From a virus (lineage: Duplodnaviria; Heunggongvirae; Uroviricota; Caudoviricetes): a DNA stretch of 43,000 nucleotides. This document shows, in pieces, positions 5,726-29,667 of the stretch. The position numbers and the translations under genes are program-made. The stretch spans positions 1-43,000 of IMG/VR virus record IMGVR_UViG_3300021387_000463; one strand, written 5' to 3'. Numbering within the stretch: the first letter of the stretch is position 1; every line of letters begins with the position of its first letter. The notes below the pieces were generated by a model, which saw only the letters and a program-made list of their open reading frames with translations, was not told the origin of the DNA and ran no database searches.

Positions 5726-5935
5726 ATGATTTCAGAGAACAGAATAAGAGAGATTATCAATGAGGAATTAAGCAAGACTGAGGTTGAATCAATTGTATCC
5801 AACCGTCTATCTTCTGCCTATAACTCAAGGGACTTTAAGAAAGCGGTTAAGGACATAACAGCAGATGTCATTGAAGACTTATTCCGTACCTTGTGGAATC
5901 GTAGTAGCACATGGAAGGGAGGAGTAACTAGATGA
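5726..5935 (+). CDS. hypothetical protein with ISE...IINEE leader
   Basis: 69-aa ORF 16 nt after TATTTAT. Confidence 0.65.
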   Translation: MISENRIREIINEELSKTEVESIVSNRLSSAYNSRDFKKAVKDITADVIEDLFRTLWNRSSTWKGGVTR

Positions 5936-6525
5936 AGTTAATACACATCAATGAGGCAGTATTCAACAGACTCCTAGAAGACAACAGAAGACCACCTTTT
6001 CAAGACTTTTACGACAGCGTTGTTGCGTTCATAGAGGGAATGCGCAAAGACCCTATAGGAACAGTCCCAAACGAGCTTTTAAAGGGCTGTGGGCTTCATA
6101 ATGGAGAGCTTAGAAAGAAACTCTATGACTATGGAATAATCACTAAGGACGAAAGGATTGATGAGCCATATGATGAAACAACTGGACGCCAGCAGTCTCG
6201 TTATTACGTAACATACGATTGGTCTGAGAGAATTAAGAAGGAAATGAAGAATAAGGAGAGAGTTGGCAACCCTATCAAAAAAGCATTTATAAGGAAGTTG
6301 TATAATGACCATTTCGGCATCAATGAGGCTTATCACACATCAAAGGGTGTAATGCTTCATGACAACGACCTAGAGAATGATATAAACATGAGGGGACAAA
6401 TAGATACGATGCTTAATTCTCCTTTAACAATGGGTGTGATAAGTGATGAGTCGGCACCTGAGTATGTTAAACAAGCAACTGACATTTACAATAATAAAAT
6501 TAATAAAAACAGAAAAAAGATATGA
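5932..6525 (+). CDS. hypothetical protein with leader-like N-terminus (MKLIHINEAVFNRLLE)
   Basis: 197-aa ORF coupled to previous gene. Confidence 0.65.
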   Translation: MKLIHINEAVFNRLLEDNRRPPFQDFYDSVVAFIEGMRKDPIGTVPNELLKGCGLHNGELRKKLYDYGIITKDERIDEPYDETTGRQQSRYYVTYDWSERIKKEMKNKERVGNPIKKAFIRKLYNDHFGINEAYHTSKGVMLHDNDLENDINMRGQIDTMLNSPLTMGVISDESAPEYVKQATDIYNNKINKNRKKI

Positions 6526-6695
6526 AAGAAAAATTAAGAACTCTTGAATTCTACGGTTTTGATGATGACAATACAATGTATGATGTAAACTCATACCCTA
6601 TTTCAGACGTTAAGGAAATTAAGAACAAGAAATATATCAGACCTGATGAGGAAGAGCCAGAGTCAGAATCTGGTGATACTGAAACTAATAATTAA
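6522..6695 (+). CDS. small acidic hypothetical protein (57 aa, not in ORF track)
   Basis: ATGA overlap with upstream stop; MKEKLRTLEFYGF...ESGDTETNN. Confidence 0.55.
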   Translation: MKEKLRTLEFYGFDDDNTMYDVNSYPISDVKEIKNKKYIRPDEEEPESESGDTETNN

Positions 6696-6721
6696 TTATT
6701 AACATAAAAAGAGATAAAATC

Positions 6722-7126
6722 ATGAATAAGCCTATTCAATTAACAGAGCAAGACCTTCACATGTTGGTGGAGGACGCAGTAAAAACATACCTAACAGAGA
6801 ACGGTATGGACGAAGGATGGTTTGGTGACAAGTGGAATCAAACTAAGACAGCAGCTAATACCATGTTTCAAGGAAACAAAGGAGCTGGTTTGAAACAGAA
6901 ATTCAATAATGCTAGACAGAATTGGAACACCCAAGGCCAGTTGAATGGATTGAACAATTTAAGACAGCAACTTGAGCAGTTCATTGATTCTGGACAGCTA
7001 AATCCACAGATGACAATTGCGCAACTTGTTGGCGGTAAGTACAATGGTAACAAGTTTGGCAGAATGAGTGGTATGATTGGAAATAGACAATCTCAGATTT
7101 CTAAAAGAGGTGGTCAATACAACTAA
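6722..7126 (+). CDS. hypothetical protein with LTEQDLH leader, Gln/Asn/Gly-rich
   Basis: MNKPIQLTEQDLHMLVEDAVKTYLTE resembles the shared leader. Confidence 0.7.
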   Translation: MNKPIQLTEQDLHMLVEDAVKTYLTENGMDEGWFGDKWNQTKTAANTMFQGNKGAGLKQKFNNARQNWNTQGQLNGLNNLRQQLEQFIDSGQLNPQMTIAQLVGGKYNGNKFGRMSGMIGNRQSQISKRGGQYN

Positions 7127-7133
7127 AAACAAT

Positions 7134-7169
7134 AAAAATCCAAGAGAGTTAACCTTTCTTGGATTTTTT
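7134..7169. terminator. bidirectional intrinsic terminator between convergent genes
   Basis: aaaaatccaagagag-ttaac-ctttcttggattttt, A-run before and T-run after. Confidence 0.75.
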
Positions 7170-7538
7170 CTTAAGTGGACAACTGCTTATTGTAATTCCT
7201 AAATTAAATTCCTTGTTTAATTGATGCATCTTTTTTCTAAACTGAAATCCATGTTTAAAGAAAAGATATTCATTTTTCTTTTTAATTGACTTCACGTAAT
7301 GATGAATCATTTCGTGTACAATTACCTCACGCAATACTTCTTCAGTCCAATCAACGTCATTGGTAATCCATATTTTGCCGTGAACAGTACCATCATCATC
7401 TTGTTTGTTTGTATAACGACCATATGTACATTTATCTAATTTAATATAATGGCAGTCGCACATAGATAATTCCCCATTAAAGTACATTTTGTTGTACTTC
7501 TTGTATAATTCCTTTATTAATTCTTTTGTAACTTTCAT
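7149..7538 (-). CDS. SprT-like zinc metalloprotease
   Basis: N-terminal YNKMYFNGEL, HEMIH zinc motif, HGFQF. Confidence 0.85.
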   Translation of the reverse strand: MKVTKELIKELYKKYNKMYFNGELSMCDCHYIKLDKCTYGRYTNKQDDDGTVHGKIWITNDVDWTEEVLREVIVHEMIHHYVKSIKKKNEYLFFKHGFQFRKKMHQLNKEFNLGITISSCPLKKKSKKG

Positions 7539-7542
7539 GTTG

Positions 7543-7574
7543 TAAAGATACGAAATTTCCTATAAATAGCCAAA
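7543..7574 (-). promoter_or_regulatory. Bacteroidota sigmaA-type promoter driving SprT gene (near-leaderless)
   Basis: Minus strand TTTG, 20-nt spacer, TATCTTTA, then ATG 4 nt later. Confidence 0.65.
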
Positions 7575-7650
7575 TATTAAATGTTAAACTATGTTTAACA
7601 AAAATTTTGGTATAAGTGTGATATTTATATTTAAATAACTGTCTTTAGAT

Positions 7651-8436
7651 ATGAAGAAAATAATAAGACTTACAGAGAGTGACTTACATAGAATCGTCAA
7701 GGAATCTGTATATAGAATACTGCAAGAGGATGGTCTAGGTGGGACAACATCATGTGCTGGAGTATATGATACCCCTAGCAGCACTGGAACATACGAAGGT
7801 GGTAAGGCTCAGAGTAAAGAGGTTACAGATTATCCTTTAGGTGGCGTTATAAGAAAGGGTCACAATCTTGGTAATCCGACTAAAAAAAAAGAAAAAGGAA
7901 TTGACATGACACCAGCCACAGATAGAAGTGGTGGAAAGAATCATTCTATTGCTATAAACTATGTTGGAGAGTCTGCTATTCATGAGGCTGTAGAAGAAGG
8001 AATCGGAAATTGGTTAAAGGGTGCAGCACTTGGTGGTATGATGGCAATGTCAAACCCACAAGCAGCTCAAGCACAGAACCATCAATACCAAGAGAATCCT
8101 TATGTTAATGGTGTTGAACAAGTTAACCATCCTTATTCCCAGAAATATGACATATCATATGATAACGAGGAAAGCAAATCATTGATATATGATTTATTAA
8201 GGAATAATGCAGCATATGACTCTAGATGGGGAAAGGGAATAACACCAGAGGTATTTGCTAAGATTCAAAAGTACCCTAAATATGATATGAAGACTCCAAT
8301 TGAAGCATTCTTGAAAGCAAATAAGGATTTGATAAAAAGATGCGGTGGCAATGTAGGTGGTGTTGAATCAGATGTCACATTCGTATATGCTAATGGAGGC
8401 TATTACTTAGTTCCTAGTGATATTAACATGTTATGA
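7651..8436 (+). CDS. hypothetical protein with MKKIIRLTESDLH leader
   Basis: N-terminus MKKIIRLTESDLHRIVKESVYRILQE; preceded by TATTTAT. Confidence 0.75.
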   Translation: MKKIIRLTESDLHRIVKESVYRILQEDGLGGTTSCAGVYDTPSSTGTYEGGKAQSKEVTDYPLGGVIRKGHNLGNPTKKKEKGIDMTPATDRSGGKNHSIAINYVGESAIHEAVEEGIGNWLKGAALGGMMAMSNPQAAQAQNHQYQENPYVNGVEQVNHPYSQKYDISYDNEESKSLIYDLLRNNAAYDSRWGKGITPEVFAKIQKYPKYDMKTPIEAFLKANKDLIKRCGGNVGGVESDVTFVYANGGYYLVPSDINML

Positions 8437-8594
8437 TAGATTACGAAACAAATGAAGAGGCAATCAAGAGGGTTCGTGAGATTGATGAACAACTCAAGGA
8501 AGAAAATGAAAAAGAGGTTGCCGACAATAAGAAAGTGACTCAACTTATGTTTGAGCAATTGTTAAGGGGATTATACATAAATCAATACAGATAA
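8433..8594 (+). CDS. small hypothetical protein (53 aa, not in ORF track)
   Basis: ATGA overlap; MIDYETNEEAIKRVREID...; fills gap in operon. Confidence 0.55.
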   Translation: MIDYETNEEAIKRVREIDEQLKEENEKEVADNKKVTQLMFEQLLRGLYINQYR

Positions 8595-8606
8595 AATAAA
8601 TTAATT

Positions 8607-9428
8607 ATGGTAACAAAGATTAACGTAGGCGATTTGAGAAGAGTTATCAAGGAAAGTCAAAACGAGTTCAAACCAGTTGTTTTTGGAATGGATAAGTCTA
8701 AGGAAATCAACGACAAGGCTTACAGTGATACCAAGAAGGAAACCGAGAAGTATGACGGTGGACTTACAAAGGACAAGAAGACACTTGGTGGAGGTATTTC
8801 TGCCACAGACAACAAAGGTATGCATGATTTGACCTATGATAGCATCAACAAGCCTTTCCAAGACAGAGTTAAGTCTCAGATGAAGGGCTATCCATCAAAG
8901 GATGCAGAGACCAAACATAAGGGTGAACCTTTTGGAAATGCAACATTTGATGATGAAGGTAATATTTATAAAGCAGCAGTTGACCATGCTGAAGCTGTTA
9001 AGGACGGTAAGGACGCAGCAGTTGAAATTGGTCTAACAGGTAGAGAACTTAATAAAACTGAAGTAGAAAAAAATAGGAAAACAATGGGAGAATCAAAGAA
9101 AATCAAGATGCTTACCTTTAAGAATACACAATTTATCTCTGAGAATCATATGATGACTAGAATTCCAGATGAGTATAAGACAGAAGGTAACAGATTCGTA
9201 ATGAAAGACAGTGCTGATAACCAGTATCTTGTTGAGTGGCACACAACGGAGCCAGTAGTTACTAAAAAGCCTAACATGACTTTGGTAAATGAGCAGAAGG
9301 AGAGAATGAAGCAGCTTTGGAATTATCACTATGCAGAGGCTAAGACTTCAACTTCTAATTTCAGAGTACAAGAAGACAAGGGCTTCACCGACATGGTAAA
9401 TAAGGCTAGAAAGTTAATGAAGGATTAA
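8607..9428 (+). CDS. hypothetical protein, possibly virion/prohead-associated
   Basis: Leader-like MVTKINVGDLRRVIKES and internal VNEQKERMKQL motif. Confidence 0.65.
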   Translation: MVTKINVGDLRRVIKESQNEFKPVVFGMDKSKEINDKAYSDTKKETEKYDGGLTKDKKTLGGGISATDNKGMHDLTYDSINKPFQDRVKSQMKGYPSKDAETKHKGEPFGNATFDDEGNIYKAAVDHAEAVKDGKDAAVEIGLTGRELNKTEVEKNRKTMGESKKIKMLTFKNTQFISENHMMTRIPDEYKTEGNRFVMKDSADNQYLVEWHTTEPVVTKKPNMTLVNEQKERMKQLWNYHYAEAKTSTSNFRVQEDKGFTDMVNKARKLMKD

Positions 9429-9452
9429 TAAAGATTTAATATTAGTATAGAA

Positions 9453-10211
9453 ATGAAGAACAATGACATAAATATTAATTTAAATCAACCAAGTGGCGAA
9501 AAAGCATCTTCAGTCGTTAAGGCTATAAAAAGTGTTACGGATGCTATTTCAAATGCAAAATGGACAAGGATTGTTAAAGTTTATTTAGTTATGTTTTTCT
9601 TTCTAGCCACACTATTAGGGGGATTTTTTGCTTATAAGTTCATAAGCGATAAGGATGCTATGCATGAGGCATCAATTAGTTTGGTGAGAAGCCAAAAAGA
9701 AGAGAATATAAGGGATTTTATTGTAACACCTAAGATACAGCACGACCTTAGACTCTTGATATATACACTTAATGCTGACAGAGCATTTCTGTTTGAACTG
9801 CACAATGGTAAGAAGAACACTTGTGGACTTCCATTCAGATTTGCAGATATGTCATATGAAGAGGTTAATGAGGAAAAAAAGGTTGACAGAATTGCGATGC
9901 AGTTTCAAGACATTCCTTTAACACTTTACAAATATCCTCATTATTTGCAAAGACAGAAGATGATAATTGGCACAATAGATGAGATTGACAAGATTGACCA
10001 CGAATTTGCAAATCACATAAAGGATGTGGGGGGTGTATATCTTGGAATGATTTATATAAGCAGCGGTGGTACTCCGCTTGGCTTCTTGTGCGTATCATAT
10101 CATAAGTATGAGGATATTCCAGACCCAAGATTAATAGAGCAGAAACTGACAGAGCACGATAAAACGCTGACACAACTGTTAGACCTCGATATAGTTATGA
10201 AAAATAATTAA
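9453..10211 (+). CDS. single-TM protein with GAF-like C-terminal domain; candidate T4 gp t-type holin
   Basis: TM helix VYLVMFFFLATLLGGFFAY; LNADRAFLFELHNG and PLGFLCVSY are GAF-like. Confidence 0.55.
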   Translation: MKNNDININLNQPSGEKASSVVKAIKSVTDAISNAKWTRIVKVYLVMFFFLATLLGGFFAYKFISDKDAMHEASISLVRSQKEENIRDFIVTPKIQHDLRLLIYTLNADRAFLFELHNGKKNTCGLPFRFADMSYEEVNEEKKVDRIAMQFQDIPLTLYKYPHYLQRQKMIIGTIDEIDKIDHEFANHIKDVGGVYLGMIYISSGGTPLGFLCVSYHKYEDIPDPRLIEQKLTEHDKTLTQLLDLDIVMKNN

Positions 10212-10213
10212 TT

Positions 10214-10915
10214 ATGAAGGAATTTTTGAAAAATCTATACAAGAAATATTATTCGTGGATTATAGCATTCTTGCTTACGATTGTAGTATACTTGATTGCC
10301 TATTTCAACTATAGACTTGAGCAAAAGCAAAAGAAAATAGATAAAATAGAATATACGGATTCAACTAGCGCATATAACAAACTTTACTATGAGACTAAGT
10401 TTACATCGTTGAAGAAGGAAAATAAAGACTTGTATGATTCTCTAAAACAATATAAGGATAAGATTGATTATATAGTGCAATTCTATCACGAAAAGGAATA
10501 TAACACTGGTCAAGTTCATACAAAGCCTAACATTATTGATAGCGTGGTGTATGACACAATCCCAGTAAGCGTGCCTCAGATTGCTAAGACGTATGAATAC
10601 TTGAGCGAACCAAACGACACGTTCCAATATAAGTTGAATGTCAACTCGTTTACAGAACCAAATTGGTATTCAATACAAGCAAAGGTAAAGAATAAGTTTA
10701 CGATAGTTAATAAGGAAGAGGGTGGTGCTAACCACATTACGATTAAACCAGAGAATGGCGGTACAATAACAGACCCAACCGTTTGGAAGAAGAAAGAGAA
10801 GAGAAACTTCTTGGATAGATTCTCATTCGGACCTGGTGTTACCGCTGGTTATGACCCAATTAATAAGAAATGGGGCGTGATGGTTGGTGCTTCAGTAACA
10901 TTTGATTTAAAGTAA
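10214..10915 (+). CDS. membrane-anchored protein, candidate spanin
   Basis: N-terminal TM, coiled coil, C-terminal amphipathic beta strands (FSFGPGVTAGYD...VGASVTFDL); adjacent to holin candidate. Confidence 0.5.
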   Translation: MKEFLKNLYKKYYSWIIAFLLTIVVYLIAYFNYRLEQKQKKIDKIEYTDSTSAYNKLYYETKFTSLKKENKDLYDSLKQYKDKIDYIVQFYHEKEYNTGQVHTKPNIIDSVVYDTIPVSVPQIAKTYEYLSEPNDTFQYKLNVNSFTEPNWYSIQAKVKNKFTIVNKEEGGANHITIKPENGGTITDPTVWKKKEKRNFLDRFSFGPGVTAGYDPINKKWGVMVGASVTFDLK

Positions 10916-10916
10916 T

Positions 10917-11393
10917 ATGAAAAAGATAATTAGATTAACAGAAAGCGAACTCCATAACATTGTAAAAGAATCTGTAACTAGAATTTTGAAGGAAGATTTT
11001 AATCAGTTCTCAGATGAAGACTTTGCAAGTACTGGAAATCCAAATGAGCTTGATGCTTATAACCCAATAAGTGAAGTTGAACATATAACACCTCAAGATT
11101 TAAGGCGTGTATACGTCTGGGAAACTGGAGATTCATATTATGAATTCGAAGCCGATTATGGCGAAGGAATGAGTGAAGCAGTATCTATAAGAGGTAGTTT
11201 TGACGGTGATTTCACTATAGATGACGTTGTATTGGGACATAGTGGCTTTGGTAGACAAATGAATCGAAGTGATGTTCAGTCATCACAATTTGACGAATGG
11301 TTTAATACAACACTTGGAGACCATCTTGCAAGGGTGATATACAAGAAGATAGAAGTTGGAGATTTCGCTAATGATGCCGAAAGTGGATATTAA
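10917..11393 (+). CDS. acidic hypothetical protein with MKKIIRLTESELH leader
   Basis: MKKIIRLTESELHNIVKESVTRILKE. Confidence 0.75.
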   Translation: MKKIIRLTESELHNIVKESVTRILKEDFNQFSDEDFASTGNPNELDAYNPISEVEHITPQDLRRVYVWETGDSYYEFEADYGEGMSEAVSIRGSFDGDFTIDDVVLGHSGFGRQMNRSDVQSSQFDEWFNTTLGDHLARVIYKKIEVGDFANDAESGY

Positions 11394-11398
11394 AATAT

Positions 11399-11438
11399 AA
11401 AATGCTTGGAAACTATTTAGTTTCTGAGCATTTTTTTT
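11399..11438 (+). terminator. intrinsic terminator
   Basis: aaaatgcttggaaacta-tt-tagtttctgagcatttt with T-run. Confidence 0.7.
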
Positions 11439-11472
11439 ATATTTTATAAAGAATGTAATATTTAATATAATT

Positions 11473-11673
11473 ATGGAGATAAAGAAAGGAAGCATAATAA
11501 TAACCAAAGATGGTGAATATAAGCTAAAGAATATGATGACACTCTATAATCCGTTTAATTTGCAACCAAAGACATGTTTCGTGGTTGATGACAACGGTAA
11601 AGATAAATTCGTTGGAGAAAAGGATATTATCAGTGTTAAAAATAACCACATAGAAAATATAGAAGAACCATGA
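11473..11673 (+). CDS. hypothetical protein
   Basis: 66-aa ORF starting an operon. Confidence 0.6.
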   Translation: MEIKKGSIIITKDGEYKLKNMMTLYNPFNLQPKTCFVVDDNGKDKFVGEKDIISVKNNHIENIEEP

Positions 11674-11861
11674 TTGCGACTTTACTATTACAATTAAAGG
11701 TATTTTTGTTTATAATGGCATTATTGACACTAGTTGTTGATATATTCCATGTTATAAGTGTGTTCCGTCTTAAGAATGGAAAACTTGCTACACAGAACGA
11801 GCTTATCGTTTTCGGTGTTGCGTTATCTTATGTACTAACAATGTTAATCTGCGGATTCTAA
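11670..11861 (+). CDS. small two-TM membrane protein
   Basis: Two hydrophobic helices; ATGA overlap. Confidence 0.65.
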   Translation: MIATLLLQLKVFLFIMALLTLVVDIFHVISVFRLKNGKLATQNELIVFGVALSYVLTMLICGF

Positions 11862-12353
11862 ATGAAGACATTACAAGAAAGAATGAATGACATGAAGCCT
11901 TATTTTCGTGGCATAGAAATGTACAATGAGGCACTCATGGTCAAGGTTGTGTATCCAAGAAACTGGAAAGCATATCCTTCCAACGATGGTAGGATAAAGG
12001 TTACTCCATCAGATGATGGGGCTTTAACCTATTACTATGCAGATTCAAAGGATACTAGTTATGAAGACATGTTTGACTTGGTTGAGGAAACAATCAAGGC
12101 AAATAACGATATTGTGCTCAAACTCAAGCTTCTTAAGGATAAGGTTACTGAGTTGAAGGAACTGTTCTCAGAACTTTCTTATGACGAATTGACAACCCTA
12201 AAATTTGTCACTGAGAAGGTCAAAACTGAGAAGGGTAAGAGGAAGTACACCAAGAAGAAAAAAGAGGATGAGAAGCCACGAGAAGAGCCTCAAAATGAAA
12301 CTAACAATGTTATGGAAGAGTTAATAAAAGATAATGAAAAGAAAGACAACTGA
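11862..12353 (+). CDS. hypothetical protein
   Basis: 163-aa ORF in operon. Confidence 0.65.
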   Translation: MKTLQERMNDMKPYFRGIEMYNEALMVKVVYPRNWKAYPSNDGRIKVTPSDDGALTYYYADSKDTSYEDMFDLVEETIKANNDIVLKLKLLKDKVTELKELFSELSYDELTTLKFVTEKVKTEKGKRKYTKKKKEDEKPREEPQNETNNVMEELIKDNEKKDN

Positions 12354-19360: not shown

Positions 19361-20044
19361 ATGGAAAATATTACAAAAGATTTTAGACATTTTGCAATTG
19401 ATAAGGTGGGTATGTCACCTTCAGTAATTGATGATAAGATTGGTAAGGTAAATAATCATATTACGCCTTACATCCTTGAGGAAAGACAGTTGAATGTGGC
19501 AACATTTGATGTATTTTCTAGGTTGATGTATGATAGAATCATCTATTTTACTGGAGTTGTTAATGATGAAACTTGCGACACAGCAATAGCACAGTTGCTT
19601 TACTTGTCATCAGTGGATGAGAGGGACATTAACATGTATATTAATAGCGTGGGTGGTTCAGTAATTTCTGGACTTGGACTTGTAGACACAATGAATTATA
19701 TTAATTGTGACATTTCAACTACTTGTATTGGTATGGCAGCATCTATGGGTTCTGTGCTCTTAAGTAATGGTGCAAAGGGTAAGAGATTCGTATTGCCTCA
19801 CAGTAGGGTTATGATACATCAAGTAAGCAGCAGTCAATCTGGAACTCTTGCAGACCTTGAGATTGAACTTGAGCAGACTAGAAGGTGTAAGAACGATGTT
19901 TATAAGATTCTTGCAGACAACACTGGACGTTCATTTGAGGAAATGGAGAAACTTTGTGACCGTAACAATTGGTTTATCGGACAAGAGGCTGTTGATTTGG
20001 GTATTGTTGATAAAGTGTTAATTTCAGCAAAAAAAGAAGGATAA
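19361..20044 (+). CDS. clpP: ATP-dependent Clp protease proteolytic subunit
   Basis: DVFSRLMYDRII, YINSVGG, GMAASMG (Ser), RVMIHQ (His), DRNNW. Confidence 0.95.
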   Translation: MENITKDFRHFAIDKVGMSPSVIDDKIGKVNNHITPYILEERQLNVATFDVFSRLMYDRIIYFTGVVNDETCDTAIAQLLYLSSVDERDINMYINSVGGSVISGLGLVDTMNYINCDISTTCIGMAASMGSVLLSNGAKGKRFVLPHSRVMIHQVSSSQSGTLADLEIELEQTRRCKNDVYKILADNTGRSFEEMEKLCDRNNWFIGQEAVDLGIVDKVLISAKKEG

Positions 20045-21343: not shown

Positions 21344-21412
21344 GAGATTAATGTTAATTATTGATTATTTTTTCACTTTATTGTATATTTATATTAGAAA
21401 ATTACATTTAAA

Positions 21413-21874
21413 ATGAAGAAAATAATTAGATTAACTGAGTCAGATTTGCACAATCTTGTCCAACGCAGTGTCCTAAGAATCTTACAAGAGCAGAACGATT
21501 TTGGCTTGCTCTTGCAATCAATTGCGCAATCAATTGCTCAAAAAGGAACTATCTATGTTAATTTAGGTGAGAATTATATTGATGTTGAATTACAGCAAGG
21601 TAATTTCGCAGATATAAATTTTGAGGTTGATGGAGACCCATATCTACAGCAAGGAATGAAAAGTAGTAGCTACGATGTGCCAAATGACCCAGATGAAATA
21701 ATTGACAATTTAAAGATTACAATTGGCAGTATTGAATATTGCAACGGAGAAGGAGAATGTTTTCCAATTCGTGATAATGGAATTGTTAAAAAAGCTTTGG
21801 AAAGTGTGATTCAAGTTGATTACAGCAACTATGATGTTCCAAGCGAAGAAGATTATTTCTATTATGAGGACTAA
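21413..21874 (+). CDS. acidic hypothetical protein with MKKIIRLTESDLH leader
   Basis: MKKIIRLTESDLHNLVQRSVLRILQE; TATTTAT 20 nt upstream. Confidence 0.75.
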   Translation: MKKIIRLTESDLHNLVQRSVLRILQEQNDFGLLLQSIAQSIAQKGTIYVNLGENYIDVELQQGNFADINFEVDGDPYLQQGMKSSSYDVPNDPDEIIDNLKITIGSIEYCNGEGECFPIRDNGIVKKALESVIQVDYSNYDVPSEEDYFYYED

Positions 21875-21900
21875 TAACGTTATTTAAATACATTAAAGCT

Positions 21901-22035: not shown

Positions 22036-22049
22036 ATCTTCTTAAGAAA

Positions 22050-22081: not shown

Positions 22082-22122
22082 CATTATGAGTTGACGATTT
22101 CGATTCATAATGCAATTTTTTT
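22079..22122 (+). terminator. 16-bp hairpin plus T-run overlapping the tRNA promoter
   Basis: ttgcattatgagttga / tcgattcataatgcaa then T7. Confidence 0.55.
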
Positions 22123-22124
22123 AT

Positions 22125-22208
22125 GGCTTTATGCTGGAATTGGTAGACAGGCTTGACTCAAAATCAAGTGTCAGCGATGGCGTGAGGGTTCGAGTCCCTC
22201 TAAAGCTA
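22125..22208 (+). tRNA. tRNA-Leu(CAA)
   Basis: Acceptor ggcttta/taaagct, anticodon arm cttga-ctCAAaa-tcaag, long variable arm, T-loop ttcgagt. Confidence 0.9.
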
Positions 22209-22209
22209 C

Positions 22210-22410
22210 ATGGATAAGAATGTCGCTTTTAAGACCATAATGCATGAGCCAATGATACTAGATGGAGGTGGCGATGTCAATAAGCTATCTGAAATCATTG
22301 GTGATAATAACGTTGAAAGATTAGTGGGTCTTAACGTTATTAAGGAACATGATGGGTCTTTTGAAGTGACCGACTTGGGAAAGAAATTTATTGAAATATT
22401 CAACAAATGA
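22210..22410 (+). CDS. hypothetical protein within tRNA cluster, possibly winged-helix-like
   Basis: 66-aa ORF filling the gap between two tRNAs; C-terminal FEVTDLGKKFI. Confidence 0.5.
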   Translation: MDKNVAFKTIMHEPMILDGGGDVNKLSEIIGDNNVERLVGLNVIKEHDGSFEVTDLGKKFIEIFNK

Positions 22411-22419
22411 TGACAATAT

Positions 22420-22498
22420 GCCCTTGTGGTGGAATGGTAGACACGCTGATTTAAGGGGTCAGTTCTTCGGAGTGTGGGTTCGAGTCCCACCGAGGGTA
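22420..22498 (+). tRNA. tRNA-Leu(AAG)
   Basis: Acceptor gcccttg/cgagggt, Leu-type D arm, ctgat-ttAAGgg-gtcag, T arm gtggg-ttcgagt-cccac. Confidence 0.8.
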
Positions 22499-22660
22499 CT
22501 CTAGATTGGTGAAAGATGGTGGGTTCGAGTCCCACATAACGACACTAGCTAAAGTTTTCGAGGTGAAAACATTCACCAAACAACAATGTGCAGCACGTGA
22601 TGTATGTTGGCTAGGTTGGGATATTATGCGCCATAAGGAACTGCAAATATCCCATTAAGA
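22499..22660 (+). ncRNA. putative structured RNA of unknown class with a tRNA-type T arm
   Basis: Several complementary segments and a T-loop hairpin; no plausible sense ORF. Confidence 0.4.
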
Positions 22661-22661
22661 C

Positions 22662-22756
22662 ACCCCTATGGTGGAATTGGTAGTCACGCACGGTTAAGAA
22701 TCTGTGTGCCGAGGTGATAAACAGTAGGCGTGAGGTTTCGACAGCCTCTAGGGGTA
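22662..22756 (+). tRNA. atypical tRNA-Leu-like (8-nt anticodon loop ttaagaat, extended variable arm)
   Basis: Acceptor accccta/taggggt, Leu-type D arm, cacgg/ctgtg stem, T arm gaggt-ttcgaca-gcctc. Confidence 0.6.
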
Positions 22757-22762
22757 CTAAAT

Positions 22763-22836
22763 TGGTGAGTAGCGCAACTGGCTAGAGCATCAGAATTTGG
22801 GTCTGAGGGTTAAGGGTTCGAATCCCTTCTCGCCAA
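22763..22836 (+). tRNA. tRNA-Gln(TTG)
   Basis: U1-A72 acceptor tggtgag/ctcgcca; tcaga-atTTGgg-tctga; T-loop ttcgaat. Confidence 0.7.
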
Positions 22837-22856
22837 CAAAAATAAATAGTGTATAT

Positions 22857-22944
22857 TGGGAGTTGGTCGAGTGGTTTAAGACGCAGGACTTTGACCCCTG
22901 TTGGGAGAATTCCCTCGCAAGTTCGAATCTTGCACTCCTAACCA
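22857..22944 (+). tRNA. tRNA with TTG (Gln) anticodon and long variable arm; encoded CCA
   Basis: Acceptor tgggagt/actccta + ACCA; loop ctTTGac; variable stem ggga-gaat-tccc; T arm gcaag-ttcgaat-cttgc. Confidence 0.75.
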
Positions 22945-22962
22945 TTTATATATAATAGCAAT

Positions 22963-23166: not shown

Positions 23167-23198
23167 GGTTGCTTATTTTCGTGGTCTAAGATACCACA

Positions 23199-23242
23199 AA
23201 AGATGCTGATTGTCTGCTAAGATAGTCAGCATCTTTCTTTTT
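23199..23242 (+). terminator. intrinsic terminator ending the tRNA transcript
   Basis: aaagatgctgattgtct-gcta-agatagtcagcatcttt plus T-run. Confidence 0.8.
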
Positions 23243-23279
23243 GAAATTAGTGTTATATTTATTCTAAAACTTAAGTGAT

Positions 23280-23450
23280 ATGAATATAGTAAGTAATGAT
23301 AAAATGGAGTTGAAGTACGATAAGTACGAGAGAACCTACACGCTCACTGTGTATGATAAGTATGGTCATTACATTGATGATGTTGTGTTGAATAGAGAAG
23401 AAGTTAAAGAACTTTATGAAGGATTAGATTCTGTAAAAAACACGTTCTAA
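23280..23450 (+). CDS. small hypothetical protein (56 aa, not in ORF track)
   Basis: ATG 17 nt after TATTTAT; MNIVSNDKMELKYDKY... Confidence 0.5.
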   Translation: MNIVSNDKMELKYDKYERTYTLTVYDKYGHYIDDVVLNREEVKELYEGLDSVKNTF

Positions 23451-23452
23451 AA

Positions 23453-23484
23453 TTTGTTAATTAGGATTTTTTTGTATATCTTTG
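23453..23484 (+). promoter_or_regulatory. Bacteroidota sigmaA-type promoter
   Basis: TTTG, 20-nt spacer, TATCTTTG. Confidence 0.7.
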
Positions 23485-23502
23485 CAAAAATGGATTAATG
23501 TT

Positions 23503-23706
23503 ATGGCAAATATGTTTTTGAAGAAAACTATGGCATCAATGTTGAACATGCCTAGTGACCAAGTAGAAGCAATCTTGAATGCTGCCGAGGCATTTAAGAG
23601 TAACGAGATTGACCGTAATCTTGCGATTAAGTTGTTCGACAAGTTTTCAAAGAAGAGTCCGAAGGAAATCAATGAGATTCTGAGGTACGTAGATAATAAT
23701 TTCTAA
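23503..23706 (+). CDS. hypothetical protein
   Basis: ATG after host-type promoter; TAATG coupling to next gene. Confidence 0.6.
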   Translation: MANMFLKKTMASMLNMPSDQVEAILNAAEAFKSNEIDRNLAIKLFDKFSKKSPKEINEILRYVDNNF

Positions 23707-24161
23707 TGACAGCCACGCAAGTGTTTATGCTTTTTCTCAAGACAGAACTTTCTGTAAATGAATACATCTTCTTCATGCACCATTTATCAAGGAGAAGAAG
23801 AGGGGGTAAGGTAAGACCAGTATTGGGAAAAGGATTTGTTGAGGGGTATCTATGTAGAACAAGGAGGACTCTTGGTGGATTTATGACAAGAGTGTTTGTC
23901 CTTTGTCCTAATCTCTTGAGGTATGGTGAAAATAATCCAACCTATATGCAGATTTATAAAGGTATAAGACCAATTTATTATGGTAAGTTTTGTTCCCCCA
24001 ACGATGATGATTATTTTTTTTGGAGGCGTGTTAATTCAAAATGCGTATCGGTATATCGTTATAAATGGCATGTATTTCTAGAGAAACACATAATAAGTGA
24101 GAAGAAATTCAATAGTGTCTATAAGGAAGGTGAAACATATAGTTACGAATACAAAAAATGA
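23706..24161 (+). CDS. hypothetical protein, MTAT paralog 1
   Basis: MTATQVFMLFLK N-terminus; W..FL.E.I C-terminal motif. Confidence 0.7.
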   Translation: MTATQVFMLFLKTELSVNEYIFFMHHLSRRRRGGKVRPVLGKGFVEGYLCRTRRTLGGFMTRVFVLCPNLLRYGENNPTYMQIYKGIRPIYYGKFCSPNDDDYFFWRRVNSKCVSVYRYKWHVFLEKHIISEKKFNSVYKEGETYSYEYKK

Positions 24162-24670
24162 CAGCAACTCAAGTATTATTTCTTTTCTTTAAGGAATGCT
24201 GTACCATCGATGAAATGAGATTCTTCAAGTATACGATTTTGAAGGACAATGGTAACAAGTATTTTAGGAAAAGACCTCTATATACCCCAACCTTTGTTGA
24301 AGACTATCTAGCTAGGAATGAAAGAGCATTAAATAACTATATGACAAGACTATTCATCCTTGCCCCTAATTTGGAAAAAAAGAGAGATAAAAATCCTAGA
24401 TGGATGTGGATAGCGAATGATTTTAAAGCTAAAAATGAGGGTAAGGTTAGAAAGTTTAGAATTAAGGATTGGTTTGGTAACTATACTGGAGAGGTTAAGG
24501 ACTATTTTGTGACATTTCAATATTATAATGCTGGAATGTACATCAACTACTATAAAAGGAAATGGAATCAGTTTTTAAGAGAAAGGATAGAGAGTAAGAA
24601 AAAGTTTAATAGCCCATTCAAGAAGGGTGAGTGTTACGATTTTAAACTAAAAACCAATGACAGCAACTGA
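24158..24670 (+). CDS. hypothetical protein, MTAT paralog 2
   Basis: MTATQVLFLFFK; FVEDYL.R..R.L..YMTRLF.L.PNL shared with paralog 1. Confidence 0.7.
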   Translation: MTATQVLFLFFKECCTIDEMRFFKYTILKDNGNKYFRKRPLYTPTFVEDYLARNERALNNYMTRLFILAPNLEKKRDKNPRWMWIANDFKAKNEGKVRKFRIKDWFGNYTGEVKDYFVTFQYYNAGMYINYYKRKWNQFLRERIESKKKFNSPFKKGECYDFKLKTNDSN

Positions 24671-25166
24671 GATATTCAAATTGTTTTTGAGAAACGGAGT
24701 TACACCAAACGAGAGACTAGCATTCATGACTGAGATACGTAAGAATGTACGTGATAAGGATAACGTCTACTTGTGGAGGCAACGCTATTGGAATGAGCCA
24801 CCGAAAGAGATACATGAGATTGAGGCATCATTCGCTGAGAGAGTTATGTTCAACAGCCACTATGTAGGTAATCATCTTGGAAGATATGGCGAATCCTCTG
24901 GTTGTACCTCTCTTTCATCCCTCATGAGGTATCTTTTGTACTACATGCAATCAATCATAGGTACAGCAAGAAAGAAGAATAGATTCCTTGGAAGGGAAGA
25001 GGTTGAAATCCCAGAGAAGATTGGATATAAGCGATATTGGGAGAACAGACTCATAAAGAAATGGCATGAATTCCTCAAAGAGAATGTGAGAAGCTATGAC
25101 AGCTATGTAGCACCTTGGGGATTCAGATATGATAGGTGGATGTTGAAGAATCAAACAAAGTCATGA
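24657..25166 (+). CDS. hypothetical protein, MTAT paralog 3
   Basis: MTATEIFKLFLR; KWHEFLKENV. Confidence 0.7.
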   Translation: MTATEIFKLFLRNGVTPNERLAFMTEIRKNVRDKDNVYLWRQRYWNEPPKEIHEIEASFAERVMFNSHYVGNHLGRYGESSGCTSLSSLMRYLLYYMQSIIGTARKKNRFLGREEVEIPEKIGYKRYWENRLIKKWHEFLKENVRSYDSYVAPWGFRYDRWMLKNQTKS

Positions 25167-25555
25167 TATACGTTTACAATAGTCATCAAGAAGATTTTAC
25201 AAGCAAACCTAATAATTTCTATATTGGTAGGGGTAGCGCATTAGGAAACCCATTCACTCATAATGGTGTCAGAAGCATATTCAAAACCATGTCATTCAAG
25301 ACTAGGGAACAAGCCATTGAAGCCTATGAAAAGTATTTCGATGAAGTCTACGGAAAGGACGAATCATTCACTAAGGCTTTTGATGAGATATATGAACATT
25401 ACAAGAATGGTGAAGATATATACCTTCAATGTTTTTGCAAGCCAAAGGCATGTCATGGTGATGTGATTGCCGATAGATTACAAAGGAAACTGATTAAGGA
25501 AAAAATGGAAGAAAGGAAGAAAAATGAAAAGATTTCCAATGAAAAGAAAAATTAA
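25163..25555 (+). CDS. DUF4326-family protein
   Basis: YIGRGSALGNPF and LQCFCKPKACHGDVI. Confidence 0.8.
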   Translation: MIYVYNSHQEDFTSKPNNFYIGRGSALGNPFTHNGVRSIFKTMSFKTREQAIEAYEKYFDEVYGKDESFTKAFDEIYEHYKNGEDIYLQCFCKPKACHGDVIADRLQRKLIKEKMEERKKNEKISNEKKN

Positions 25556-25700
25556 ACATGCTTTAACTGAGCATTGGACTAATGATGGAAGACGTTTTAG
25601 CAAGACAGATAGACAGCATCTTTTGACAAAGTGTAAGAAACGTAGCATGAGACGTTTTATACAGAGGGAAGCCGAAGAAGAAATAAATGAAGAAACATAA
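25524..25700 (+). CDS. small basic hypothetical protein (58 aa, not in ORF track)
   Basis: Frame ends immediately before terminator. Confidence 0.45.
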   Translation: MKRFPMKRKIKHALTEHWTNDGRRFSKTDRQHLLTKCKKRSMRRFIQREAEEEINEET

Positions 25701-25731
25701 AAGTAGCAATAGAAATATTGCTGCTTTTTTT
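25701..25731 (+). terminator. intrinsic terminator
   Basis: aagtagcaata-gaaa-tattgctgctt plus T-run. Confidence 0.75.
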
Positions 25732-25767
25732 GTAACCATAATATTTATAGTAAATAAATAAATTAAT

Positions 25768-26916
25768 ATGGTTTTATCTGAAGATATACAATCTCTATTC
25801 AGAACAGTAAGAACGATGCTTGGCGCTCCATTGAGAAAGGTTCAACTTGAGGATGAGCAGCTTTGTGACCTTCTAGATGTGGCAATCGGTGACTATTCTG
25901 AGAAGGTTCAGAATTGGGTATTAGAGACACAATGGTTGAACATACAGAATAAGAATGCTATACAGTTTCAGAATGCGAATGAATTGGCATATGCCATGAC
26001 AGTTAGAACTATGGACTGGTCACGTGATTACTCATATTGGTTCTCTCGTGAGGTTGGCTTGCAGCAGAGAGGTAACTACGAACTTAAGAAGGATTTTTTT
26101 AGAATCGAAAAGGGAAAACAAGTATATGTCATTCCAGCTGGACGTGAGATTAATAAGGTAATGTATATAACCCCATCCACTACCAAGGCAGCATTGTATG
26201 GAAACTTAGGTACACTTGATACAGGTATCGGTGGAGGTTTCGGACAGTATGGTAATATGGGTAATGGTATGGGTATTACTGGATTCTATGTCGGTTCTGC
26301 ATATGATACAGCGTTGATGTCAGTTGACTTGAAATATAAGAACTCTCTATTGAGAGGTGACTTGGCTTATAAGGTAACTGCTGGTCCAGAGGGTACACAC
26401 CTTGTACACTTGATGTCAGTTCCTGGTTCTCCAAATATGGTTGGCGGTATTGCTGCTGATGATACTTGGGGATGGAATCGTTATGCTAACTGTATTTGTT
26501 GGTATACATATTATGATGTTAATGGTGCAGAAGATGCAGACCTTTGTATGTTGGAGAATAAGGATGATGTGATTATAACGCCAGACCAAGTGCCATTGGA
26601 TAAGATGAAGTACGAACTCATGAACAATCCAACACAGCAGATTATAAGACGTTTGCTTGTGGCAGAGGCAAAGATATTGCTTGGTATCATAAGAGGTACA
26701 TTCAGTGGAGCAGTGAAGATTCCAGAGGCTGAAATGCAGATGGACTATAACATGTTGCTTCAGCAAGGCGAAAAGGAGAAGGAAACTGTACTTAACGAGA
26801 TAAAAGAACGTTTGGATAGAATGACACCTTGGAACTTGATGGAGAAACAAAGCACCATGAATGAGCAACTTATCAAGGTACTTAAGAATAAGCCACTAGG
26901 CTTTTATGTAAGATAA
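25768..26916 (+). CDS. head-tail connector/neck protein (T4 gp13-like)
   Basis: LGAPLRKVQLEDEQL..L.D.AI N-terminus; C-terminal AEAKILLGIIRGTF...LLQQGEKEKE...PLGF typical of gp13 family. Confidence 0.75.
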   Translation: MVLSEDIQSLFRTVRTMLGAPLRKVQLEDEQLCDLLDVAIGDYSEKVQNWVLETQWLNIQNKNAIQFQNANELAYAMTVRTMDWSRDYSYWFSREVGLQQRGNYELKKDFFRIEKGKQVYVIPAGREINKVMYITPSTTKAALYGNLGTLDTGIGGGFGQYGNMGNGMGITGFYVGSAYDTALMSVDLKYKNSLLRGDLAYKVTAGPEGTHLVHLMSVPGSPNMVGGIAADDTWGWNRYANCICWYTYYDVNGAEDADLCMLENKDDVIITPDQVPLDKMKYELMNNPTQQIIRRLLVAEAKILLGIIRGTFSGAVKIPEAEMQMDYNMLLQQGEKEKETVLNEIKERLDRMTPWNLMEKQSTMNEQLIKVLKNKPLGFYVR

Positions 26917-26925
26917 ATAATGTTA

Positions 26926-26972
26926 AAATTTGGGCTGATATTTTGTCAGTCCAATTTTTTTTCGTATATTTG
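26926..26972 (+). promoter_or_regulatory. fused terminator hairpin and Bacteroidota-type promoter
   Basis: ttgggctga/tcagtccaa stem, T-run; TTTG 26942-26945, 19-nt spacer, TATATTTG 26965-26972. Confidence 0.65.
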
Positions 26973-26976
26973 CATT

Positions 26977-27237
26977 ATGAGAAAATTTAATAGACGAATA
27001 GCTTTTAAAGATTATTATGAAGGAAGAGGAAAAGAATTTTTGATTCTTTTAATTCCATTTACTTGGATTTTTTTACCATTAATAATAGCTGATGAACTTT
27101 GCAATTTAATAAGTTTATTTATGTCAGGCAAGGTGCATTATACTTATGGCTATTGTACAATTGACCATTATGAAGAAGGTATGCGAAAAGAGAAACAAAA
27201 ATTTCTAGAAGAACTTGATAAATATGGCACTTTATAG
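26977..27237 (+). CDS. small single-TM hypothetical protein
   Basis: ATG 4 nt after -7 element; hydrophobic FLILLIPFTWIFLPLII. Confidence 0.55.
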   Translation: MRKFNRRIAFKDYYEGRGKEFLILLIPFTWIFLPLIIADELCNLISLFMSGKVHYTYGYCTIDHYEEGMRKEKQKFLEELDKYGTL

Positions 27238-27403
27238 AGAACAGTTAGAACCTTACATGTACTCTGAGAAGAGACGTAAGCGCAAGTCCTATAAGTGGGC
27301 TAAGAAACAAATGAACAAGTGGCTTCGTATCAAGAACAAGAAGATTAGCGAAGACGATTCTAGTGGACACGGTAAAAAGCAGTGGCATGGGTATGAGTGG
27401 TAA
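27224..27403 (+). CDS. small basic hypothetical protein
   Basis: K/R-rich, overlapping starts/stops. Confidence 0.55.
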   Translation: MALYREQLEPYMYSEKRRKRKSYKWAKKQMNKWLRIKNKKISEDDSSGHGKKQWHGYEW

Positions 27404-27680
27404 TAAATTCAAACAAACCAATATGAAATGTACTACATTTAAGTATATTGGTGAGAATGGCGAGAAGATTGAGAAGCCAAAGAAGCAGTTTAATAGCGAG
27501 GAAGAAGCGTTTAAGCAAGCTTGCTATTATAATGCCTATGGCAACACCATACATAAGTTATCGGCTTACAAGTGTTGGTCTTGCGGAAAATGGCACATTG
27601 GGAGGACACCACATGTTCTAACTCAAGAGGATAGAGAGAAATATAAACAAAGACTTGCAGAGTTAAGTAAGAATAGATAA
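27393..27680 (+). CDS. hypothetical protein with zinc-finger (YKCWSCGKWHIG)
   Basis: CxxC-x3-H motif. Confidence 0.65.
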   Translation: MSGNKFKQTNMKCTTFKYIGENGEKIEKPKKQFNSEEEAFKQACYYNAYGNTIHKLSAYKCWSCGKWHIGRTPHVLTQEDREKYKQRLAELSKNR

Positions 27681-27700
27681 AATATGGTACTTGAGGAAAT

Positions 27701-27734
27701 AAAAAAGGGTGAGATTAGTTCTCGCCCTTTTTTT
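27701..27734. terminator. bidirectional terminator
   Basis: aaaaaagggtgaga-ttagt-tctcgcccttttttt between convergent genes. Confidence 0.8.
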
Positions 27735-29667
27735 CGTTTAATACCTTATCGACACTAGCACTGAAGAAGTTTTCATTTCCTTCAATCATTCCACCTCTAA
27801 GGTTTCCAAAGTGTTGTGTCATACTATATATTGCATTCTTGGTAATTTCGTTATAAGCCTCATCAGCCATTCGACTTTCTGTTATTAATGATTTACCCTC
27901 ATGGACAACTAGATTGTCATCATAGCCTTCACCAGTGTCTCTAATTCCAATTTGGTAATTCTCAGGAACTCCAATCTTTTTAATGATTTCCATTTCCCTC
28001 TTTTCATCCAATACATTTGCATGAGAACCATGAGCTTTTACGAACACAAAGTATTTACCTCCGTTTTGCAATTTAGCTAATATACTCTCATCGTTTGGCT
28101 CATAGCATAAATGGCATTGGTAACAGTTAACTGATTGGTTTTCTTTTACATTACCATTTTTAGCATTAACCAATGAGAAATCTTCTCTAGAACATGGACA
28201 TTTGTAATAGAACGAACCATTTGGTGTTTTATTACCATTTGCATCGACACTAAACAATGGAAGAGGGTTCTTACCGATTGAATCAAATGAGTTTGTCATG
28301 CTTCTAGAGGTATACGTATCCTCAAATGCTTCATACATCTTAACTGGAATAGCATAGAAATATCTAGCGATTGTTGGACCTTCCATTTCCATTCTAGATG
28401 CATTGATTACAATGTTCTTAATACCCTTGAAGTTTAGGTTTCTACAAGAATATGCTGCTGTATTAACACCTATATATTTGAAATCTCCAGCTAGGCTATC
28501 GAATGACTCTAACAAATCTTGATTAATAAAGTCTCCATTCTCATTTAATCTAATATAAGAAACACGTTTACATTGTTTTACAACCTCAAGTAATTGTTCT
28601 GGCATGTCCTTAAAATACATCTGTGAAATCTTTGAAATACTACCAACCTTTCCCAACTTAGCTGTCTTAAGTGACTTAAGAACCTTATCCCAATCAACCA
28701 CATATGCCTTAAGCAAATCATATACCATTTTTGTTAGTTTATGGTCATCTTGGCATGCCATCCACATTAAGTTCTTTTTATCGTTTGATGGTTTAACATT
28801 GTTATAGTGTCTTCCTTCTCCAGCTCTTGCATAACAAGCATGCTTAACTAAACATTCATTCCAAGCTGGACATCTAAACGCTGATGTGAAGTTAATCATT
28901 AAGGCATCTGTAACTTTTTGGTTTCCTAATGCGAAGTTAGGTGTATTGAATTGTACACCATAGACACTCTGTAGATACTTGTCTACAATTTGTTCCTTCA
29001 TTTCAATGAAAGCCTTTGCTTGTGATATTGTTTCTTGTCTGCTATCTGTGTACCAAGTATCAAACTGGTTTTTGTTAATATCATTCAAGTCAAAGTGAGA
29101 ATCATCGTAAGTACCATCACGATTGATTATAATACCGAATTTATAAAGTTTTGAGTCTTCACCTTTATTAAATTGAACCTTTGATGCAGGGTTGATAGAT
29201 GTATCATATAAGAAACGTAAATCCAATGAATCGATATAATCCTTTACTCGTAGGATGTCAGCATAAGATAAGCCATGATAAGCATCACTGTCTGCATTTT
29301 TCTTGAGTACGATTTGATTAATTCCACCAGTACTATTCGTAACTTCTCTTAAGATGTTTACTACAATTTTCACTTTATCAGTCATTGAAGTAGAGATACT
29401 AGCTGTCTCAGGCTCCAAGTTCTGATTCATCATCTTCATTTTCTCTTTTCTTGAATAGTTTGGATTGATACCCAATTCATTGGCAGTTTGTTGCAAGTTT
29501 GAATCGGTTTTCAACTTATCTTGAATTGCTGCATTGATATTCTTTTGAAAGTCAGTGATATATTTGTCTGAAACGTATTTTTCACCCTCTTTCAAAGATA
29601 TTGCTTCATTTATAGACCTATTTATAATATTTAAGTACTGTTTATCTGAAATTTTAAATTTTTTCAT
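27715..29667 (-). CDS. large Cys-rich protein with phage Gp88-like (radical-SAM-related) domain
   Basis: GNQK, CPAWNECLVKHACYA, IRLNENGDF, CPC and CYQCHLC motifs. Confidence 0.6.
   Translation of the reverse strand: MKKFKISDKQYLNIINRSINEAISLKEGEKYVSDKYITDFQKNINAAIQDKLKTDSNLQQTANELGINPNYSRKEKMKMMNQNLEPETASISTSMTDKVKIVVNILREVTNSTGGINQIVLKKNADSDAYHGLSYADILRVKDYIDSLDLRFLYDTSINPASKVQFNKGEDSKLYKFGIIINRDGTYDDSHFDLNDINKNQFDTWYTDSRQETISQAKAFIEMKEQIVDKYLQSVYGVQFNTPNFALGNQKVTDALMINFTSAFRCPAWNECLVKHACYARAGEGRHYNNVKPSNDKKNLMWMACQDDHKLTKMVYDLLKAYVVDWDKVLKSLKTAKLGKVGSISKISQMYFKDMPEQLLEVVKQCKRVSYIRLNENGDFINQDLLESFDSLAGDFKYIGVNTAAYSCRNLNFKGIKNIVINASRMEMEGPTIARYFYAIPVKMYEAFEDTYTSRSMTNSFDSIGKNPLPLFSVDANGNKTPNGSFYYKCPCSREDFSLVNAKNGNVKENQSVNCYQCHLCYEPNDESILAKLQNGGKYFVFVKAHGSHANVLDEKREMEIIKKIGVPENYQIGIRDTGEGYDDNLVVHEGKSLITESRMADEAYNEITKNAIYSMTQHFGNLRGGMIEGNENFFSASVDKVLNEKKGEN

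Follow-up and report, generated by a model that had tools for sequence, protein, structure and literature searches.

In a 43,000-nucleotide stretch of phage DNA (hereafter, the window), several proteins that are otherwise unrelated start with the same 26-residue peptide (hereafter, the leader). We interpret the leader, with a probability of about 0.6, as a longer variant of the capsid-targeting propeptide of the kind known in phage T4, which is also employed as a joint in multi-module proteins. The window comprises bases 1-43000 of a phage genome of 412,753 bp with 36% G+C, represented by a single virus record. The phage is a T4-like giant phage of rumen Prevotella-type bacteria, and no DNA match to it was detected among the GenBank phages.

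A propeptide of this kind would form a single, flexibly tethered amphipathic helix, by which proteins made late would dock on the scaffolding core while the prohead assembles. The prohead protease of the gp21 family would then cut after the Glu of L-T-E (residues 7-9) and/or of (I/L)-x-E (residues 24-26), so that the mature protein is set free within the head; in proteins with an internal leader, the same cuts would divide a multi-module precursor into separate pieces. Core binding, cleavage, presence in the virion and delivery to the host are what we infer for the leader-bearing proteins. Delivery by injection is the least supported of these steps and is a candidate only, because no cargo has a recognizable function, with no match in Pfam, PHROGs, the ESM Atlas or, by Foldseek, the PDB.

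The leader and the proteins that carry it

The leader (MKKIIRLTESDLH…ILKE) heads open reading frames (ORFs) 7651, 10917 and 21413, in which it begins with M-K-K-I-I-R-L-T-E-S and ends with R-I-L-(Q/K)-E, and a diverged version heads ORF 6722. A leader profile was searched against all six translated frames of the complete genome, and yielded 12 significant copies in 11 proteins, three of these copies being internal. The near-identity of the N-termini of ORFs 7651, 10917 and 21413, first noticed in a reading of the sequence without database searches (hereafter, the sequence-only reading), was borne out, with E-values between 1e-17 and 1e-18. The copy in ORF 6722 moved from E 0.0023 in the first pass to 3e-14 after one iteration; it retains L-T-E at residues 7-9 and has another L-T-E at residues 24-26. 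Scanning the full genome with a model of the leaders, as had been proposed along with that reading, added seven leader proteins outside the window.

In the alignment of the 12 copies (A1), I5, E9, L12 and E26 are invariant, and L7 and T8 are nearly so. Position 24 is Ile or Leu and position 26 is Glu in all 12 copies, so that the hydrophobic-x-Glu ending proposed earlier holds for every genuine copy, and similarity ceases directly after E26. The L-T-E at residues 7-9 provides a second candidate cut site. None of the Pfam and PHROG models covers the leader, the only matches being sub-threshold ones to helix ends (Holin_LLH, YqzH), and the similarity between the leader and the N-terminus of the predicted scaffold protein was not significant in a profile search.

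The codons of the leader vary synonymously among the copies, and the upstream DNA is unlike from gene to gene apart from a short promoter motif; selection thus acts on the peptide rather than on the DNA. A cassette or regulatory element maintained at the DNA level was considered as the cause of the shared start and is rejected on the same two observations.

The proteins behind the leaders are unrelated, as the sequence-only reading had suggested: in a 15-sequence database, no pair of the sequences that follow the leaders showed BLASTP similarity (all pairs E > 0.2). The pI of these cargos lies between 4.1 (net charge -20) and 10.3. The homologs of ORF 7651 have the leader, a Gly-rich region and a hydrophobic segment in common, followed by several unrelated C-terminal domains. 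The hydrophobic segment, near residues 125-140 of ORF 7651 (nt 7966-8080), resembles a signal peptide, ends with A-x-A-Q and is conserved in the homologs. The architecture of ORF 7651, with a conserved front and differing C-terminal domains, resembles that of polymorphic effectors.

All the detected relatives of the 10917 cargo carry the leader, in a word-based search that reached only relatives of at least 71% identity, so that portability is demonstrated by fusions and by a free/embedded pair, and not by leaderless relatives. In one of the 10917 relatives, an extra module of about 95 residues is connected to the cargo via I-T-E, and in two others, a 113-residue domain precedes an intact leader that retains its Met. 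The free/embedded pair involves a 649-residue protein with two internal leaders (248539-250488): the stretch between them is 42% identical (E 4e-34) to a 162-residue protein that occurs on its own, with the leader at the N-terminus and preceded by 10 extra residues. Thus, a unit consisting of a leader and a module occurs both alone and embedded, and the leader, being also internal, is both an address at the N-terminus and a joint between modules. The 649-residue protein is a candidate protease-jointed precursor, judging from its sequence. Its layout combines a Dps/ferritin-like N-terminal part (weak matches to PHROG 858 and DUF5856), an acidic middle part and a basic C-terminal module.

An AlphaFold2 (AF2) model of the 10917 protein, built from a 15-sequence alignment (mean predicted local distance difference test score, 77), shows a helix at residues 9-26, with low to modest confidence, a disordered segment at residues 27-58 and a confidently predicted, compact alpha+beta domain at residues 59-147. 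This domain is very acidic, and a Foldseek search against the PDB found no match for it. The leader is thus predicted to be a detached helix on a disordered tether, separate from the fold of the cargo. An amphipathic helix on a tether would equally suit a permanent, uncut docking or oligomerization element that ties late proteins to a virion or assembly structure (the scaffold, inner body, capsid wall and portal are the candidates) or to each other, with the Glu residues being features of the helix or of its contacts. The late promoter and the head-module location of leader genes (see below) agree with such a role, as do the 26 conserved residues, which exceed the needs of a cleavage tag, and the variable residue after Glu-26. 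We nevertheless consider a permanent helix unlikely: the two invariant Glu residues, each with Leu or Ile at position -2, match the rule of the phage's own protease family, the conservation boundary lies exactly at the Glu, a 22-residue variant of the leader has the same ending, and the internal copies are located at module borders.

The sequence-only reading had listed eight copies of the leader in the window, of which those in 7651, 10917, 21413 and 6722 are retained, and those in 5726, 5932, 8607 and 29667 are not. These four looser copies were compared with the profile in six frames and among N-termini, with reversed and internal controls, and are unsupported as members. Even with the search limited to 560 N-termini, 5726, 5932 and 29667 reached only E 3-4.5, and the E-value of 0.04 obtained for ORF 8607 among the same N-termini is at the noise level, given that a reversed-sequence control reaches 0.008.

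Promoter motifs, head genes and the prohead protease

Genome-wide, two motifs are 10-15-fold enriched upstream of genes. The class A motif, [T/C]ATTTAT[A/T], is located mostly 20-30 nt ahead of the ATG, and precedes the terminase, portal, protease, scaffold and capsid genes, along with large genes of the tail region; it is presumably a late promoter. All 11 leader genes, in 10 units, stand behind class A (TATTTATW), with a chance expectation of about 3e-4 at the level of units. The TATTTAT that the sequence-only reading saw ahead of most leader units is therefore real, and the association is stronger than claimed, given that every leader gene belongs to a unit headed by class A. To the extent that sequence can answer the point, this placement speaks against leader genes being expressed only early, an outcome that had been named as a refutation along with that reading. 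The class B motif (TTTCGTATCTTTGCA) is found ahead of many small genes, especially at 160-240 kb, and fits TAnnTTTG, the form of the Bacteroidota housekeeping promoter. A sigma-70-family factor is encoded in the window and, going by its sequence, could recognize promoters of one of the two classes.

An extended conserved early-promoter block that ends with TTTTTTTTCGTATCTTTGCA (Bacteroidota -7 type) is present at positions 3540-3610 and 26915-26985 (+) of the window and elsewhere across the genome, and the core TATCTTT[G/A] is found on about 80 genes. Two small ORFs with a common N-terminus, 3547-3702 and 26920-27237, are probably artefacts of reading across this block.

The genome contains a T4-type head module, with a terminase gene at 290518 and a gp20-type portal gene at 292454 (Portal_T4, E 1e-87), followed by genes for a prohead protease of the Peptidase_S77 family (PF03420), a scaffold-like protein and a gp23-type capsid protein. 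Over 92% of its length, the protease shares 32% identity with gp21 of T4-like coliphages, and it retains the LNHP and GVSSRG motifs. In the capsid protein, the Gp23 domain matches only residues 385-664, which indicates an insertion of about 280 residues after the conserved mature N-terminal block. Just ahead of this block, the protein has I-Y-E|A-T-A-S; the capsid protein of a T4-like coliphage has L-T-E|A at the known cut region, in the place that corresponds to I-Y-E|A. Proteases of the T4 gp21 family cleave after L/I-x-E, and the T4 internal proteins have N-terminal propeptides of 10-19 residues that direct them to the core, ten residues of IPIII being enough for targeting (PMC9026906).

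Three of the 11 leader genes belong to the head module: 297659 and 298055, located between the portal and protease genes, and 289574, which abuts the terminase gene. The products of 297659 and 298055 consist of 110 and 132 residues, and their genes occupy the position of the T4-like prohead core genes (gp67/gp68). Two related genomes, of 412 kb (G001) and 295 kb (G003), keep leader genes beside the protease gene.

The other 8 leader genes are outside the head module, among genes of DNA metabolism, which would suit a general interaction or joint module of late proteins that is unrelated to the capsid interior. Such a module could act in an assembly factory, at a membrane site or in a complex made by the phage, and any cleavage could be due to another protease, for instance, the ClpP homolog encoded in the window. 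The lack of virion-protein annotation for the cargos, with the exception of one weak PHROG match, and the copies of the leader in host chromosomes (see below) are compatible with this possibility. The perfect association with the promoter of structural genes and with genomes that encode an S77 protease would, however, be unexpected for a general module. The genes for the internal proteins of T4 are scattered as well; the start M-K-K-I-I bears only a loose resemblance to known N-terminal ClpX signals; and a degron would need no invariant Glu 26 residues into the protein. We therefore regard a general module as quite unlikely.

Distribution of the leader and the case against capsid targeting

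When the A1 profile was searched against 1.84 billion proteins, 6,199 cluster representatives (clusters defined at 50% identity) were retrieved with E <= 1e-3, 520 of these with E <= 1e-10. The best 150 of the 6,199 contain 126 N-terminal and 126 internal copies. Glu occupies position 26 in 238 of 238 copies, Leu or Ile is present at position 24 in 221 of 238, and 217 of 218 have Glu at position 9, with Ser, Gly, Asn or Ala after it; these statistics are biased toward the profile that picked the sequences, which diminishes their value as support for capsid targeting. Those of the listed leader relatives that are annotated are called 'hypothetical protein' at most in their sources, and among the listed relatives no Pfam domains were found except for one WG-repeat family, on longer leader proteins.

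In IMG/VR, the leader is encoded at at least 229 loci. The Peptidase_S77 protease was detected in 10 of the 14 leader-bearing IMG/VR records longer than 100 kb, and in all 6 that are at least 90% complete (269-412 kb). Five of these 6 complete genomes were searched for the leader and contain 9-19 copies each. In the distant relatives G004 and G005 (292-296 kb), the leader has a 22-residue version that ends with (I/L/V)-x-Glu.

An exact-pattern scan of 185,579 species genomes detected the leader in 19 contigs, nearly all of these from metagenome-assembled genomes of rumen Prevotellaceae and Bacteroidaceae, with the addition of two cultured strains, Segatella bryantii DSM 11371 and Prevotella sp. 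MA2016. The chromosomal copies point to Prevotellaceae as the hosts. In S. bryantii (L104:6932-7195), an 87-residue leader ORF adjoins a GH2 glycosidase gene and has a class A motif 30-odd nt upstream. In MA2016 (L107:4808-6823), an internal leader is part of a 342-residue ORF that abuts an IS1595 transposase gene (Pfam E 9e-43). In the phage genome itself, an IS1595 transposase is present in a single copy (323067-324089) within the tail-gene region, where it adjoins a gene for a 506-residue glycosyltransferase-like protein (both at 323067-325991, -), with no leader gene attached.

The S. bryantii copy, with the same promoter motif, and the MA2016 copy, next to a transposase, suggest that a promoter-plus-leader cassette is mobile. 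The shared N-terminus might be a conserved remnant of a paralogous family or of a recombination cassette, in which the rest of the protein diverged or was swapped, without any targeting function. We judge such a remnant to be highly improbable: synonymous differences combined with a conserved peptide are the mark of purifying selection on the peptide, the leader persists across all 6,199 clusters, the cargos show no trace of common descent, and modules of opposite charge and different fold class carry the same leader.

The sequence-only reading had proposed a capsid-targeting and processing system modeled on that of T4. Several parts of this proposal are upheld, namely, the presence of an S77 protease together with T4-type head genes, the three leader genes in the head module, the (L/I)-x-Glu boundary, the promoter motif of structural genes, the co-occurrence with the protease in the complete records and the detached helix in the AF2 model. 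The correspondence to T4 in detail is not, given the two candidate cut sites and the internal copies, which the T4 model does not include. A number of further points weigh against capsid targeting. In sequence, the leader and the T4 tag show no similarity; the leader is over twice as long, and with ten residues being enough in T4, the conservation of 26 has no explanation. Various residues (G, I, D, A, S, Y, T) follow Glu-26, in contrast to the known T4 sites that were seen, where Ala follows. Because amphipathic helices often contain hydrophobic-x-Glu, the motif taken by itself is weak evidence. The assignment of class A as a late promoter comes from the genes that it precedes. For the leader ORFs in Prevotellaceae chromosomes, including those of cultured strains, a capsid tag has no obvious use unless they are phage-derived passengers. 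Furthermore, a tblastn search with a 32-residue query found no leader in 50,697 GenBank phage records or in any cultured phage, and the papers searched contain no mention of the motif. All three alternatives discussed above are nevertheless weakened by the precise end of conservation at the Glu, the two invariant sites of the protease type, the co-occurrence with the protease and the selection at the peptide level.

A broader and more tentative scenario, which we hold to be doubtful as a whole, is that the unit of promoter, leader and cargo is a mobile cassette that feeds a large, fast-turning pool of capsid-delivered proteins, with thousands of families, among the giant phages of rumen and gut Prevotellaceae. 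Under this scenario, cassettes would be strung into protease-jointed precursors, and some would have been moved by IS1595 into host chromosomes, whose tagged proteins could load into the heads of infecting phages.

Table 1. Coordinates of leader genes, promoter motifs, head genes and other features; window positions are identical to positions 1-43000 of the genome
Feature	Position	Strand	Details
Sigma-70-family factor	window 1575-2300	+	regions 2 and 4, E 7e-19 and 4e-14
Class A motif	window 5703-5710	+	heads unit 5726 to 6722
ORFs 5726-5935 and 5932-6525	window 5726-5935, 5932-6525	+	listed earlier as diverged copies; profile gives no support
Diverged leader protein, 134 aa	window 6722-7126	+	leader nt 6722-6799; cargo basic, pI 10.3
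Class A motif TATTTATA	window 7622-7629	+	begins 29 nt before ATG of 7651; heads unit 7651 to 10917
Leader protein, 261 aa	window 7651-8436	+	leader residues 1-26, nt 7651-7728
ORF 8607	window 8607-9428	+	non-member; only residues 9-17 resemble the middle of the leader; in late unit with 7651 and 10917
Leader protein, 158 aa	window 10917-11393	+	leader residues 1-26, nt 10917-10994
ClpP protease homolog, full	window 19361-20044	+	E 1.5e-58; among DNA-metabolism genes, far from head module
Class A motif	window 21386-21393	+	begins 27 nt before ATG of 21413
Leader protein, 153 aa	window 21413-21874	+	leader nt 21413-21490; cargo pI 4.1, no known family
650-aa protein	window 27715-29667	-	non-member (E 3); own class A motif 29691-29698 (-); weak Pfam GP88 match
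649-aa protein with two internal leaders	genome 248539-250488 (L004:4539-6488)		profile search
Leader gene	genome ORF 250538	-	profile search
Leader gene	genome ORF 289574		profile search
Leader gene	genome ORF 297659		profile search
Leader gene	genome ORF 298055	-	profile search
Prohead protease, Peptidase_S77	genome 298458-299153	-	E 4e-24
Scaffold-like protein, 497 aa	genome 299328-300821		very acidic
gp23-type capsid protein, 679 aa	genome 300892-302931		Gp23 E 5e-73
Leader gene	genome ORF 357579		profile search
Leader behind 58-residue DUF3008 domain	genome 394875-395354		profile search

Other recurrent N-termini are encoded in the same genomes. A motif of the M-K-I-I-I-T-E-x-Q-Y type is abundant in G004 and G005 (L087, L088, L089), and a profile built from outside sequences has one significant member in the phage analyzed here (392581-392829, -; E 0.002) and matches neither 29667 nor 5932; to judge from its sequence, this motif may be a second leader class. 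The small ORFs 5726-5935 and 247832-248104 (genome) share an N-terminal N-(K/R)-I-R-E-I-I-x-E-E, a possible third leader type with two members.

Two more loci in the window are of note. Five tRNA calls are clustered at 22125-22944 (+), namely, Leu-CAA, Leu-AAG, two Gln-TTG and one of 96 nt with a four-base anticodon (aaga), to which ARAGORN gave no name. At 38318-42735 (-), neighboring genes encode proteins of 770 and 696 residues, each with a domain of the PAP2 phosphatase family and the first with a membrane segment at its N-terminus.

Relation to known systems and significance

The concept of capsid targeting has been known since the work on T4 in the 1990s. The leader resembles the T4 capsid targeting sequence, which is found on IPI, IPII, IPIII and Alt and is removed by gp21 (PMC9026906), in being a short N-terminal peptide common to unrelated proteins and ending with (L/I)-x-Glu. 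The two systems further share a gp21-family protease and three head components, namely, a T4-type portal, an acidic scaffold and a gp23-type capsid protein. In both, the carrier genes are scattered and are expressed together with the structural genes, the latter being, for the leader genes, a prediction from the promoter motif. In contrast to T4, where the tag has 10-19 residues and four or five proteins carry it, the leader has 26 (or 22) residues, two invariant candidate cut sites, internal copies and 11 carriers per genome, and it belongs to rumen Bacteroidota phages of 270-412 kb. The likeness is one of kind and not of descent, because the leader is unlike the 10-residue T4 tag.

The two leader proteins encoded between the portal and protease genes, an arrangement kept in G001 and G003, recall gp67 and gp68 of T4 in this location. 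However, they have no sequence similarity to gp67 or gp68, with no Pfam or PHROG match for the leader proteins, and the T4-like gp67 and gp68 do not begin with a shared leader.

A second parallel is found in phiKZ, 201phi2-1 and SPN3US, in which propeptides of inner-body and ejection proteins are cut by gp21-related proteases (PMC9026906, PMC10052503, PMC7411985). These are likewise giant phages in which many head-internal proteins are processed after Glu by a diverged gp21 homolog, and a propeptide can contain several redundant cut sites. Unlike the leader, however, their motif is small-residue-x-Glu rather than (L/I)-x-Glu, and no single shared leader has been described for them; moreover, they belong to another phage lineage, with another set of head genes.

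Cargo-loading peptides of encapsulins are also short and portable, and send unrelated cargo inside a shell of the HK97 fold. They differ in their usual location at the C-terminus, in their direct contact with the shell and in escaping cleavage, and they have no sequence relation to the leader. The leader family, its size, the 22- and 26-residue forms, the double cut motif and the use as an internal joint appear to be undescribed.

If the capsid-targeting reading is correct, the leader marks which proteins are injected or head-internal in a large group of uncultured phages (270-412 kb) that infect dominant rumen and gut Bacteroidota, and more than 6,000 unannotated protein clusters would be added to this repertoire. 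Injected proteins would be the first phage products to meet the host defenses, and so these clusters would be a rich source of candidate anti-defense factors; several of the cargos are small and extremely acidic, like DNA mimics. The tagging principle of T4, with its four proteins, would then be seen to extend to a dozen or more proteins in one genome, and also to multi-module precursors, and the leader would be a ready-made packaging tag for the engineering of Bacteroidota phages.

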